Shown here: piece after piece, positions 1,076 to 25,559 of the stretch
Numbering within the stretch: position 1 is the first letter of the stretch
Layout of the letters: each line of letters begins with the position of its first letter
Assembly (NCBI GenBank): GCA_902779035.1
Contig: CACZAH010000005.1
Span: forward strand, 1-58,354
Source: an uncultured Erysipelotrichaceae bacterium
Lineage (GTDB): Bacteria > Bacillota_I > Bacilli_A > RF39 > UBA660
Direction of reading: 5' to 3'
Length of the DNA stretch: 58,354 bases
Position numbers and translations under genes: made by a program
Notes under the pieces: generated by a model
Databases searched by the model: none
What the model was told of the DNA's origin: nothing
The model's input: the letters and a program-made list of their open reading frames with translations, nothing else

Positions 1076-1588
1076 TTACATAAGTACTATCTTTTTTTCT
1101 CCTTCATAATGGCATACACAATCATATTTATCATTAGAAATAATATAACTATTACATTTAATTTTATTAATATCTAGATTCTTAAAGAATTCATCATCAA
1201 AGTCCCCTAATAATTTACAGTATGCTTCTTTTTTTACCCAAGATAATCTATAGTTACTATCTACATTTTTTAAATATAAGCATCTAGCTGAATTACTTAT
1301 ATTAAATATGTCTTCTATATCAATACCCAACTCAATATCAGATACTACACATGCAATATAATTTTTAGAATGACTATAACTAAACCTAATATTAGAATTA
1401 ATTATATAAGGTTTACCATTATCTTTATACTTAATACTGTTTATATCAAATTTAATACCAATTTTATCTAACATATTACTAAGTAATGCAAATGCTTTTT
1501 TTGTTTCATCTTTAAAATTACAAAACTTAATATCATCTTTAATAATTATATCATCTTTATTTTTAATACATATATATATTTTATCCAT
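1076..1588 (-). CDS. 4'-phosphopantetheinyl transferase (Sfp-like)
   Basis: GKPY, FSYSHS, LGIDIE, WVKKEAYCK motifs; lies at the end of the NRPS operon. Confidence 0.88.
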   Translation of the reverse strand: MDKIYICIKNKDDIIIKDDIKFCNFKDETKKAFALLSNMLDKIGIKFDINSIKYKDNGKPYIINSNIRFSYSHSKNYIACVVSDIELGIDIEDIFNISNSARCLYLKNVDSNYRLSWVKKEAYCKLLGDFDDEFFKNLDINKIKCNSYIISNDKYDCVCHYEGEKKIVLM

Positions 1589-21880: not shown

Positions 21881-23257
21881 TTAAAATCTTATTCTATCTT
21901 CAATAAACTTAACTATTTCATCTACATTAATAGTTATCTGTTCCATAGTATCTCTAAATCTTACTGTTACCGTATTATTATTTATTGTATCATCATCTAT
22001 AGTTATACAAAATGGTGTACCTATTACATCTGCTCTTCTATATCTTTTACCAATAGAACCACTAGTATCTATATCTGTCATAAAATATTTAGATAATTTA
22101 GTATATATTTCATTTGCTTTATCATTATGATACTTTTTAACAAGTGGTAATACACATACTTTGTAAGGAGCTAAGAAGTTAGATAGTTTTAATACTTCTC
22201 TTTCAGTTCCATCTTCTAATGTTTCAGTTGTATATGCATTAAAAAGTAGCGCAAGAACAGTTCTATCAAGTCCATAAGTAGATTCTACAATATATGGAAT
22301 ATACTTTTCATTAGTATCAGGATCTAAATATTCCATTGATTTTCCACTATATTCTTGGTGTCTTGTTAAATCAAAATTAGTACGATTATGAGTACCATTA
22401 ATCTCTCCCCAACCAAATGGAAATTTATATTCAATATCACACGCAGCTTTCGCATAATGCGCAAGTTTCTCATGATCATGAAATCTTAATTTATCTTCTG
22501 GAAGTCCTAAATCCATATAGAATTTCTTACCATATTCTTTAAAGTATTCATAAAGTTCCATATCACTTCCTTCTTTACAGAAAGTCTGATATTCCATTTG
22601 TTCAAACTCAATAGTTCTAAATGTAAAATTACCTGGTGTGATTTCATTTCTAAATGCTTTACCAATTTGACCTATACTAAAAGGTAGTTTAGCTCGCATA
22701 CTACGAGTAACATTCATATAGTTTACATACTCTCCTTGCGCGTTCTCTGGGCGTAAGTATACAATACTTTTAGAATCTTGTATTACTCCTCTATGAGTTT
22801 CAAACATTAATTTAAACTGTCTTATATCAGTAAAGTTAGTCTTACCACATTTAGGACAAGGTACTTTATTATCATTAATGTATTTTACCATCTCGCTGTT
22901 ACTCATAGCATCTCCAATACTACTATTAGTAAAATCATTAATTAAATTATCTGCCCTATGTCTTGTTTTACACTCCTTACAATCAAGTAATGGATCTGCA
23001 AATGATTCAACATGTCCTGATGCTTCCCAAACACGAGGATGCATTAGGATATCAGCATCTACTTCATATGCATTAGGACGCTCTTGAATAAAACGTTTTC
23101 TCCAAGCATCTTTTACATTATTTTTAAGTCTACTACCTAATGGACCATAATCCCAAGTATTTGCAAGTCCTCCATAAATTTCACTTCCTTGGTAAATAAA
23201 ACCATATTGTTTACAAAAATTAACTAATTTTTCCATATCCATATTCTTATTATCCAT
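21881..23257 (-). CDS. glyQS: Glycine--tRNA ligase (alpha2 type)
   Basis: GSEIYGGL, WDYGPLG, YLRPENAQG, GKAFRNEITPGNF, SIGKRYRR. Confidence 0.96.
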   Translation of the reverse strand: MDNKNMDMEKLVNFCKQYGFIYQGSEIYGGLANTWDYGPLGSRLKNNVKDAWRKRFIQERPNAYEVDADILMHPRVWEASGHVESFADPLLDCKECKTRHRADNLINDFTNSSIGDAMSNSEMVKYINDNKVPCPKCGKTNFTDIRQFKLMFETHRGVIQDSKSIVYLRPENAQGEYVNYMNVTRSMRAKLPFSIGQIGKAFRNEITPGNFTFRTIEFEQMEYQTFCKEGSDMELYEYFKEYGKKFYMDLGLPEDKLRFHDHEKLAHYAKAACDIEYKFPFGWGEINGTHNRTNFDLTRHQEYSGKSMEYLDPDTNEKYIPYIVESTYGLDRTVLALLFNAYTTETLEDGTEREVLKLSNFLAPYKVCVLPLVKKYHNDKANEIYTKLSKYFMTDIDTSGSIGKRYRRADVIGTPFCITIDDDTINNNTVTVRFRDTMEQITINVDEIVKFIEDRIRF

Positions 23258-23261
23258 AGTA

Positions 23262-23383
23262 TCAATCCTTTCTAAAAAACAAAGAGATTCTATAGTGTAG
23301 GGACGATTTTATCGTGGTTCCACCCTACTTAGAATCTCATTAAGTAATTGCTCACGAGTTTCCACCTCGGTCATTGCTTTCAT
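23262..23383 (-). promoter_or_regulatory. T-box riboswitch (Gly) with ultrashort stem I
   Basis: T-box AAGTAGGGTGGAACCACG (23330-23313) with antiterminator-type helices; GA-motif-flanked hairpin with GGA loop; sigma-A promoter TTTACA-17-TATAAT just upstream. Confidence 0.75.
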
Positions 23384-23416
23384 AAGTATTATATTACATT
23401 TAAATGAATTTGTAAA

Positions 23417-23452
23417 TATAATCATGAGCAAATATATAATCATGAGCAAATA
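23417..23452. repeat. Perfect 18-bp tandem duplication TATAATCATGAGCAAATA x2
   Basis: Direct reading; lies between the glyQS and tetR promoters. Confidence 0.8.
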
Positions 23453-23511
23453 AGCAAAGTAAATTGACTTATATTTTGTTTTATTATAAAATCATTCTAG
23501 GAAGTGGTTGT

Positions 23512-24117
23512 ATGAAGGGAATTATTTTATCTAAAATAGAAGAAAAGAAGCAAGAAAAAGAGAATAAACTATTATCATCTGCTTATAAACTATTCACTGA
23601 AAAAGGAATAAATACAACATCTATTCAAGATATTGTAGATGATGCAGGAGTTGCGAAAGGAACATTTTATTTATATTTTAAAGATAAATATGACTTGCAA
23701 AATAAATTAATAATTAAAAAATCACAACAATTATTTAAAGAAGCATTGGATAACCTAAACAAAGACATAATAATTAATTTTGAAGATCAATTAATATTTG
23801 TAATTGATTATATAATAAATATAGTTTCCCACGATAAAACATTAATTAATTTTATTGAAAAAGATTTATCACTTGGAATATATTCTGATGTAAATGAAAT
23901 AATTAATGATAATAAAACAGGTATTAAAGAAATATTTATAAAGGGTCTTAAAAAGCATAACATAAAACTTAAGAAACCTGATGTAACACTATTTATGATA
24001 ATTGAATTAACATCTTCTACTATATTTACATCAATTACTAAAAATAAACCTTTAAAAATAGATGAATATAAACCATATCTATATTCAGCCATTAGAAGAA
24101 TAATAAAAGAAAAGTAA
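23512..24117 (+). CDS. TetR/AcrR family transcriptional regulator
   Basis: LFTEKGINTTSIQDIVDDAGVAKGTFYLYFKDK; start uncertain. Confidence 0.92.
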   Translation: MKGIILSKIEEKKQEKENKLLSSAYKLFTEKGINTTSIQDIVDDAGVAKGTFYLYFKDKYDLQNKLIIKKSQQLFKEALDNLNKDIIINFEDQLIFVIDYIINIVSHDKTLINFIEKDLSLGIYSDVNEIINDNKTGIKEIFIKGLKKHNIKLKKPDVTLFMIIELTSSTIFTSITKNKPLKIDEYKPYLYSAIRRIIKEK

Positions 24118-24125
24118 GAATCACC

Positions 24126-25559
24126 TTACTTTTTTAAGTCACTTGCATTAATTTTTCCATCACCATTTACATCAGCAAGTAATTTTTGTGTTGTATCAAG
24201 TTCAATAATCTTAGCAATATATTTACTTAACATATTAGCATCAATCATGTTAACTTTATCATCCATATTTATATCTCCTACTTTGAACTTAGATGCAATA
24301 GCTTTAGCCAAACTATTAGCATCTTTATTATCAACAGCAGAATCTCCATTATAATCAGCATAATTTAACTGATCAATTGTAAGTTCTGTTTTCTTTAAAA
24401 TATAGTTTTCAATAATAGTAACATCTTCATGAGTAACTTTTCCATCTAAATTAACATCACCCTTCTGATACTTAGTATTACTGCCTACTTTATTTCTAAG
24501 AACAGCTACATCATTAATATCTATAACTCCATCTAAATTAACATCACATAAATTTAATTGTACTTTATTAGCAACAGTCACACCATTAAACATGTTTTGT
24601 AAGAGTGTTATATCATCATTATTAATTTTACCATCTAAGTTAATATCTCCAACTTGGTAATAATCAGATATAGTTTTAGCAAGTAAATCAACGTCAGTTA
24701 AATCAATAACTCCATCTTCATTCATATCAGAATACTTAAGTTGCTCTTTAGTTAATTTAATTTGATTAGCTACATATTTTTTTAGTAAAATTACATCATT
24801 TACATCAATTACATTATCATTATTAATATCTCCTAATGTATTGACTTTCATAATCTCACTATTTAGATACTCTTCTAATTCATATAAATCATTATTATCT
24901 ACTATACCATTATTATTATAATCTGCAACATTAATCTGTACTGTATTTAAAGAGGCCTGTTTCTTAAGATATTTACTAAGTAATTCTAAATCAGTTGTAT
25001 TAACTACACCATCTAAATTAATATCTCCTCTTTTATAATTAGCATATTTCGCATCAACAACAGTCTCCTTAACACATACATTGTTCTTATCAGTATATTC
25101 TTTAGGACATACAATAGATACTCCTATCTTAGATAAATACTCACTACCACTATTATGACCAGTTACATAAAGTCGAATATTTTCAGCATCTCCTACACTA
25201 AGTATTCCATCACTATTTACATCAGCTGCCATTAACTGAATTTCCGATAAATCTACAGTTTTAGCTAAATATTTATTAAGTAAGTCTAAATCATTGTTGT
25301 CTACTACCCCATCTAAATTAACATCTCCTAATATGTTAGCAGTAGTTGTCTCACTTTTTATACATTTATTATCACTTAATGTATAGCTATTATCATCACA
25401 ATAATAAAAACTAGTTGTAATAGAATTTCCCATTAAACTTTTCATACCTGTATTTCTTGCAATTAACTCATATATCATAAATGCAATTAATAATACTATA
25501 AACGACACGACTATTATTAGTGTAACCTTATTATTCTTTTTAAACGTCAATATAATCAC
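24126..25559 (-). CDS. Membrane-anchored protein with six tandem type I dockerin domains
   Basis: 12 GDxNxDG.V...D-type Ca-binding loops in six pairs; N-terminal TM. Confidence 0.85.
   Translation of the reverse strand: MIILTFKKNNKVTLIIVVSFIVLLIAFMIYELIARNTGMKSLMGNSITTSFYYCDDNSYTLSDNKCIKSETTTANILGDVNLDGVVDNNDLDLLNKYLAKTVDLSEIQLMAADVNSDGILSVGDAENIRLYVTGHNSGSEYLSKIGVSIVCPKEYTDKNNVCVKETVVDAKYANYKRGDINLDGVVNTTDLELLSKYLKKQASLNTVQINVADYNNNGIVDNNDLYELEEYLNSEIMKVNTLGDINNDNVIDVNDVILLKKYVANQIKLTKEQLKYSDMNEDGVIDLTDVDLLAKTISDYYQVGDINLDGKINNDDITLLQNMFNGVTVANKVQLNLCDVNLDGVIDINDVAVLRNKVGSNTKYQKGDVNLDGKVTHEDVTIIENYILKKTELTIDQLNYADYNGDSAVDNKDANSLAKAIASKFKVGDINMDDKVNMIDANMLSKYIAKIIELDTTQKLLADVNGDGKINASDLKK

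Follow-up and report, generated by a model that had tools for sequence, protein, structure and literature searches.

In the T-box leaders of actinobacterial ileS genes, the specifier codon sits in a small loop. Stem I of these leaders (that of Mycobacterium tuberculosis ileS, for example) is short and makes no elbow contact, as described in extracts of PMC7583486 and PMC11297988; partial accounts also give them a Stem II and a Stem IIA/B pseudoknot, and have them hide the ribosome-binding site. In extracts of PMC11297988, Stem II, with the IIA/B pseudoknot, is said to compensate where the elbow contact is missing. A long Stem I is generally required by transcriptional T-boxes according to extracts of PMC7583486, which also describe a purine string of Stem III that latches last, provided that the tRNA held is uncharged, and a steric filter in the form of a G-U pair at the base of helix A2. 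Of Stem III, only the ends matter for function in the account excerpted from PMC11404447.

The known kind of T-box closest to the leader described here is the glyQS T-box without Stem II. In common with the glyQS T-boxes of B. subtilis and G. kaustophilus, the leader has a K-turn at its base, a short helix with a glycine codon above it and a purine after the codon; it has no Stem II, and it shares the bulge UGGAACC, a U-run terminator and a GlyRS gene downstream. It differs from them in having no part of Stem I past the codon, the elbow platform included, and in placing the codon in the end loop after a U. Its terminator draws the 5' strand from the Stem III region and not from the A1 and A2 3' strands; in the clade of the locus studied, the Stem III hairpin itself is missing. 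A short Stem I without elbow contact is shared with the actinobacterial ileS leaders, from which it differs in lacking Stem II and the pseudoknot, in serving glycine and in having a conserved U-run terminator. A partial survey of the literature yielded no description of a minimal glycine T-box with a flanking terminator. The comparative evidence presented here suggests, with a probability of about 0.6, that a minimal glycine T-box riboswitch controls the sole glyQS-type GlyRS gene of its genome by transcription termination.

The leader and its gene

The leader occupies positions 23274-23381 of the window (the whole 58,354-nt stretch of DNA that was analysed) and lies on the minus strand, the strand having been left unstated in the earlier note (Table 1). 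The promoter, short Stem I, antiterminator and Shine-Dalgarno region that the note had named were all found in place. Downstream is an open reading frame of 458 amino acids (21881-23257, minus strand) that encodes a GlyRS with the tRNA-synt_2b and HGTP_anticodon domains (class II core). A search of the 1.19-Mb, 90% complete genome identified this as the only GlyRS gene: the glyQ alpha subunit was not found, and the search for a second GlyRS copy returned nothing beyond a 27%-identical anticodon-domain match. Of the assembled RNA contigs from relatives, one reaches across the coding part of GlyRS as far as 23252, and 23258-23505 is covered by none.

Table 1. Elements of the glycine T-box leader and their positions in the window
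Element	Position	Strand	Remark
Promoter-like site TTTACA-17-TATAAT	TTTACA 23416-23411, TATAAT 23393-23388	-	11/12 consensus matches
K-turn strands GCAAUGA / GAGC	23377-23371 / 23353-23350	-	Base of the short Stem I
Specifier hairpin CGAG / loop GUGGAAA / CUCG	23369-23366 / 23365-23359 / 23358-23355	-	4 bp, 7-nt end loop
Specifier codon GGA	23363-23361	-	In end loop; U before, A after
Single-stranded linker AAUUACUUAAU	23349-23339	-	11 nt, between Stem I and discriminator
Flanking helix / terminator 5' strand GAGAUUCU	23338-23331	-	Corresponds to relatives' purine flank plus Stem III 5' strand
Purine flank AAG (RAG flank)	23330-23328	-	Its G is the first G of A1
Helix A1 GUAGGG / CCCUAC	23328-23323 / 23302-23297	-	Antiterminator
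T-box bulge UGGAACC	23322-23316	-	7 nt, between A1 and A2
Helix A2 ACGAU-AAA-AUCGU	23315-23303	-	Antiterminator
Linker ACUAU	23296-23292	-	A1 3' strand to flanking helix
Flanking helix / terminator 3' strand AGAAUCUC	23291-23284	-	Pairs with 23338-23331, encloses antiterminator
U-run UUUGUUUUUU	23283-23274	-	Immediately 3' of flanking helix
Ribosome-binding site AAAGGA	23271-23266	-	GlyRS gene
Start codon AUG	23257-23255	-	GlyRS gene

The specifier, GGA, matches the GlyRS gene that the leader precedes. The genome contains two tRNA-Gly genes (UCC and GCC), both ending in U73-CCA, and the UGGA of the bulge between A1 and A2 is complementary to the UCCA end of both. A K-turn was recognized at the sequence level by the pattern GC-AAU-GA ... 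GA-GC. The Rfam T-box model (RF00230) matched 23296-23437 on the minus strand with 39 bits (E 2.8e-7), below its gathering cut-off of 93 bits. As the earlier note had recognized, there was neither a distal platform nor a Stem II: a long Stem I with an elbow-docking platform of interdigitated T-loops was absent from the leader, 92 Stem I positions of the Rfam model being reduced to 5 bases, and just 11 nt (23349-23339) separate Stem I from the discriminator. The Stem II with S-turn as well as the Stem IIA/B pseudoknot of actinobacterial ileS leaders were likewise absent, and the corresponding linker of relatives is 9-15 nt long.

From its sequence, the promoter-like site would start the transcript near 23381, which leaves about 4 nt ahead of the K-turn stem. 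In 92 of 100 relatives, by an uncontrolled count, the end of such a site (at least 9 of 12 positions) is 6-30 nt ahead of the K-turn. If the resemblance to a T-box were due to chance, or the transcript had been mis-assigned, the true start would lie further upstream and the leader would carry a normal long Stem I. A promoter scan of the region returned four sites, compared with 3.2 +/- 1.7 in shuffles; taken by itself, the promoter match is thus within chance in this AT-rich region, and the promoter region of a TetR-family gene lies just upstream. This alternative is nevertheless very improbable, since conservation among relatives covers the K-turn and hairpin but does not extend to the 60 nt that precede the K-turn, and since Rfam finds no Stem I. 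A long Stem I would have been detected, because ten other T-boxes of the same genome, all with a full Stem I, score 75-137 bits with Rfam.

The folding energy of the whole leader was unexceptional (z -1.54; 13 of 200 shuffles fold equally well), and it was the comparative evidence that proved decisive for the reality of the leader. Prior to synthesis of the 3' strand, the nascent RNA has a lowest-energy fold (23339-23364, minus strand) in which UGGAAACUCGU, covering the specifier together with the 3' half of Stem I, is paired with AAUGAGAUUCUA. The codon and the terminator 5' strand would both be hidden by this fold, and the substitutions in relatives are compatible with it. As a switch, the UGGAAACUCGU/AAUGAGAUUCUA fold was rejected, as it gives the wrong regulatory sign.

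Two other features of the neighborhood were observed. One is a direct repeat in tandem, some 17 nt long (ATCATGAGCAAATA...), which may be an operator; it occupies 23420-23450, in the gap that separates the TetR-family gene (23464-24117, plus strand) from the divergently oriented glyQS promoter. The other is a 477-aa open reading frame (24126-25559, minus strand) that carries six dockerin type I repeats (E 4.9e-60), in a genome no larger than 1.19 Mb.

Conservation across the family

A covariance model was built from 11 short leaders and searched in 151 genomes, approximately one per genus, of the family, which we take to belong to the order RF39. Full-length matches of at least 57.7 bits were obtained in 120 of the 151 genomes; 29 gave only weaker matches, which were the discriminator parts of other T-boxes, and two gave none. 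When 100 of the matching loci were fetched and rescanned, all matched again (74-116 bits), and 12 further loci had the same design by eye, so that 112 of the 120 matches were inspected and all were alike. In a class-wide sample, matches of at least 60 bits were found in 12 of 13 family genomes and in none of 137 genomes from 25 other families.

The association with the synthetase gene was also consistent, GlyRS lying downstream on the same strand in 97 of the 100 related loci. Starting from the gene, 30 GlyRS loci of relatives comprised 12 with the short leader, four with a full-length T-box and 14 with neither within 400 nt; for three of these 14, the model found a short leader further upstream. 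In 17 of 20 relatives Rfam gave 34-48 bits, and the other three had no hit with an E value of 0.001 or below. Scores of 34-48 bits against a cut-off of 93 set the family apart from known glyQS T-boxes, and can explain why the design is unannotated so far.

The family consensus reads GCGAUGA, one base, a stem of 3-5 bp, a loop with U-GG-N-A, the return strand and GAGC. U-G-G-N is present in the loop of all 100 relatives aligned, and the hairpin closes 2-4 nt past the codon in every one, with no distal Stem I. As assigned by script, the codon is GGA in 83 relatives, GGC in 11, GGU in three and GGG in three, although four loci were misparsed or ambiguous (L090, L115, L131 and L106) and two (L069 and L107) admit either reading, GGG or GGA. 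Variation is confined to the third base of the codon, which fits a glycine specifier. The proposal of the earlier note that this is a glycine T-box with an ultrashort Stem I, made up of a K-turn, a short stem and a GGN in the end loop, therefore agrees with what is found in 120 of 151 family genomes.

In a model-fitted alignment of the 100 relatives, which is biased toward the fitted structure, 95.8% of cells were paired and 14 of 16 pairs changed on both sides. That level of pairing was reached by none of 500 shuffles, and slid partners gave 44-54%. The K-turn stem (helix 1) was 95% paired and the hairpin (helix 2) 86.7%, with two-sided changes at all six of their pairs; A1 and A2 were 99.3% paired, with two-sided changes at eight of ten. 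The GC pairs flanking the K-turn also covary (GC 79, GU 9, AU 7). With full-length matches in 120 of 151 genomes and covariation in four helices, the suggestion that the leader represents a minimal T-box class, and not a vestige, was upheld. On these sequence comparisons, the minimal leader is a conserved class that is common to more than 100 genera of gut and rumen Bacilli with genomes of about 1 Mb.

The discriminator of the family resembles that of known glyQS T-boxes in two further respects, the purine flanks around Stem III and the G-U pair at the base of A2. The latter was found in 84 of 100 relatives, the window having A-U. In 98 of the 100, the stretch from Stem I to A1 holds a purine flank, then the hairpin AUUCU-UCU-AGAAU (Stem III) and then AA; a Stem III with 5'-RRRxG and 3'-AA flanks is thus present in the family (98/100), and in the window its hairpin is absent.

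One locus bears on the origin of the design. L020, from a related family (GlyRS 74% identical), resembles the minimal leader in its K-turn, in a GGA followed by A, in a GAUUCC..GGAAU Stem III and in the bulge UGGAACC, and differs in having a long Stem I and a terminator that, by eye, uses the 3' strand of A1. As this full-length form has the same K-turn and codon and a similar Stem III, the minimal form probably arose by deletion of the distal Stem I.

A probable terminator that flanks the antiterminator

No alternative terminator hairpin had been seen in the earlier note. This is correct for the canonical kind, which was sought and rejected, there being no downstream complement of the A1/A2 3' strand; however, GAGATTCT pairs with AGAATCTC directly before the U-run, in a terminator-like arrangement. 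The Stem III region is the partner of the strand that leads into the U-run, and the helix that results lies around the antiterminator without overlapping its 3' strand: A1 and A2 are enclosed, and the Stem III hairpin is excluded. A simple terminator scan of the region returned no terminator, but it considered loops of 3-8 nt only and was thereby blind to a flanking terminator.

This arrangement was found across the family. A U-run follows the T-box by 38-52 nt in 99 of the 100 relatives, the exception being L070, which has only UUUUCAAAUUUU. The 13-15 nt preceding the U-run form a predicted duplex with the 40 nt preceding A1 (the Stem III region) at a mean of -12.2 kcal/mol, and at -8 kcal/mol or below in 96 of 99 loci; the mean with the canonical partner (the 3' strands of A2 and A1) was only -3.3 kcal/mol. 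As controls, a shuffled strand gave -4.7 kcal/mol and a strand from another genome -8.1 kcal/mol, the observed duplex being better than the shuffled one in 99 of 99 loci and better than the swapped one in 89 of 99. In the window (L045), the GAGAUUCU/AGAAUCUC duplex is predicted at -13.4 kcal/mol.

The partner of the terminator strand varies: it is the loop and 3' strand of Stem III in 45 loci, the purine flank and 5' strand in 23 and both in 31. The flanking helix was also visible in a plain MAFFT alignment of 74 sequences, comprising the first and third of these kinds, in which ten pairs were 79-85% paired compared with 32-54% for slid partners. Two-sided changes were seen at two of the pairs, in 12 and 19 of the 74 sequences. 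The 23 sequences of the second kind and two from the window's own genus were left out of this set because they use another register.

Flanking terminators are not restricted to the minimal leader. Among the other T-boxes of the window's genome, which have a full Stem I, they were assigned by script in L003-L006 and by eye in L002, L009 and L010; the script mis-set the U-run in several, L003-L006 being clear. The canonical partner is used by L001 and L007, and by three distant glyQS T-boxes (L035, L036 and L038). A further full-length T-box was noted at L008 (G000 contig C17, 1501-1685, minus strand; 86.6 bits; bulge UGGC), directly upstream of two tandem tRNA-Asn(GUU) genes (1332-1486, minus strand), with no U-run terminator and no protein gene between T-box and tRNA genes. 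The placement of a T-box before tRNA genes is unusual.

Transcription or translation

The earlier note had proposed a translational T-box. In such a switch AGAAUCUCUUU would have two alternative partners: GAGAUUCU, with which the ribosome-binding site stays free, and AAAGGAUU, with which it is hidden; uncharged tRNA-Gly would favor the first state. Both pairings are indeed possible in the window, and ultrashort Stem I forms have so far been described for translational T-boxes, as far as extracts of PMC7583486 go. In addition, the lowest-energy fold of the isolated 3' segment has the ribosome-binding 4-mer fully paired in 43 of 89 relatives. The second of the two pairings is weak, however: the helix that hides the ribosome-binding site is predicted at -4.4 to -5.1 kcal/mol in the window, compared with about -13 kcal/mol for the competing helix, and over the 89 relatives its mean is -4.0 kcal/mol, compared with -2.8 kcal/mol when shuffled (z about -0.7). 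Moreover, the lowest-energy fold of the full leader in the window leaves the ribosome-binding site free.

In most loci the ribosome-binding site lies 10-25 nt after the U-run, but the start codon is 54-106 nt beyond the T-box match in 6 of 98 loci, and in 21 of 97 another open reading frame lies ahead of GlyRS, by 312-1446 nt. The intervening frames encode a LOG-family (PF03641) protein, a xylose-isomerase-like TIM barrel or an unknown product (L044, L047, L048, L062, L072, L081, L091, L105, L109 and L121 are among these loci). In both groups the helix and U-run stay beside the T-box, and what is conserved is thus their place next to the T-box, with no fixed relation to the ribosome-binding site. 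As a separate observation, the intervening frame in L112, and perhaps in L118, encodes a 474-aa class II synthetase-like protein.

Termination is favored because the helix and U-run stay beside the T-box wherever the gene begins and because only a weak helix is available to hide the ribosome-binding site. The translational proposal was not supported, in view of the finding that a U-run, shared by 99 of 100 relatives, directly follows the supposed anti-sequestrator helix, and a purely translational T-box is regarded as unlikely. A translational component to a terminating leader is possible, as the U-rich sequence can pair weakly with the nearby ribosome-binding site.

Loss of Stem III in the clade of the window

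Among 80 loci whose GlyRS is 77-98% identical, the loop and 3' strand of Stem III were absent from the three closest only. The window keeps the flanks of Stem III, AUGAG and AAG, without the hairpin. The hairpin is also absent from L033 and L034, which are distant members of the same genus, and from L142, which belongs to another genus; Stem III has disappeared on at least three occasions, none of which removed the flanking helix or the U-run.

One account of the window's clade is that its element is a decaying T-box, which has lost Stem III and no longer senses tRNA, and which acts as a constitutive, leaky attenuator or as a stabilizing 5' structure. Several observations are in keeping with decay. 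Extracts of PMC7583486 report no appreciable tRNA binding by an antiterminator without Stem III, which they describe as indispensable for binding of the tRNA 3' end. Among the 80 close GlyRS loci the hairpin is missing in this clade only; it is missing again in L033, L034 and L142; and the base pair of A2 is A-U in the window, compared with G-U in 84 of 100 relatives. The short leader of L034 (G007) has lost both the GGN codon (UUGAAA) and the UGGN bulge (UGAAAAAGC), with flanking helix and U-run retained, and looks like a decaying copy.

The pattern of substitution in the window's own clade points the other way. Leaders of the clade have diverged by 1.5-6%, compared with 26-30% at four-fold sites. 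Between two species of the clade, the leader is identical at 129 of 131 positions, compared with a difference of 26% at four-fold sites and an alignment of the upstream DNA at only 58%. Two compensating pair changes distinguish the specifier stem of the window from that of its relatives (CGAG/CUCG compared with UAAG/CUUA), and the loop and bulge are unchanged. To judge from these sequences, the leader of the clade is under strong constraint. Together with the retention of flanking helix and U-run in each of the losses of Stem III, of which there are at least three, this makes decay a rather unlikely account, though one that carries some weight.

A possible mechanism

It is tentatively proposed, at somewhat less than even odds, that a T-box of about 100 nt senses tRNA-Gly by only two contacts, codon with anticodon and NCCA end with bulge, and does so without an elbow platform or Stem II. 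The leader would act during transcription and would have a switch topology that is new, with a terminator that flanks the intact antiterminator and competes with the latch formed by Stem III and the purines. In the window's clade the Stem III hairpin would be dispensable as well, a bare purine strand serving both as the latch and as the 5' strand of the terminator.

In the termination reading favored above, uncharged tRNA-Gly would bind by its anticodon and 3' end, and Stem III with its purine flanks would lock onto the duplex between tRNA and bulge. The locked Stem III strand could not pair with the downstream strand, and RNA polymerase would pass the U-run. When uncharged tRNA is lacking, the weak, A-U-rich Stem III of 5 bp would be invaded, giving a long hairpin of flanking helix, A1 and A2 beside the U-run, and transcription would stop. 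The last, charge-sensitive step of latching is the one that would be read by a terminator strand in competition for Stem III or its purine flank.

A terminator stem that encloses a folded insert of 40-50 nt is unusual. The flanking helix and the A1 and A2 helices are nested, so that it is not obviously incompatible with tRNA binding, and we infer that its exclusion rests on docking of Stem III and the purines. In the window's own clade, the purine strand (AUGAG..AAG) docking on the tRNA-bulge duplex would compete directly with the GAGAUUCU/AGAAUCUC helix, which is the least certain step of the proposal. Strong G-C codon-anticodon pairs are cited for glycine T-boxes in extracts of PMC7583486 and PMC11404447; strong G-C codon pairs, together with the U and A that are conserved on either side of the codon, may help to offset the lost elbow and Stem II contacts. 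A different role for Stem III, in which its strand AUUCU is an 'anti-specifier' for the loop sequence UGGAA, was rejected, because members of the family with a GGC codon keep the same AUUCU.

Implications

If the proposed reading holds, the element contradicts the statement, made in extracts of PMC7583486, that transcriptional T-boxes generally need a long, elbow-gripping Stem I, and the statement in partial accounts that forms with a short Stem I are translational and lean on Stem II. The leader of the window's own clade would contradict a third, likewise from excerpted sources, that every T-box identified to date has a Stem III. The minimal leader would set a lower bound on the RNA needed to read the identity and charge of a tRNA while being transcribed, and the flanking terminator would be a second way of coupling the T-box discriminator to termination. 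It would also explain the under-annotation of T-boxes in reduced genomes, in which Rfam scores are about half the cut-off. For the organisms themselves, it would mean that a very large uncultured lineage of the gut and rumen keeps an essential synthetase under a leader that has neither a long Stem I nor a Stem II.
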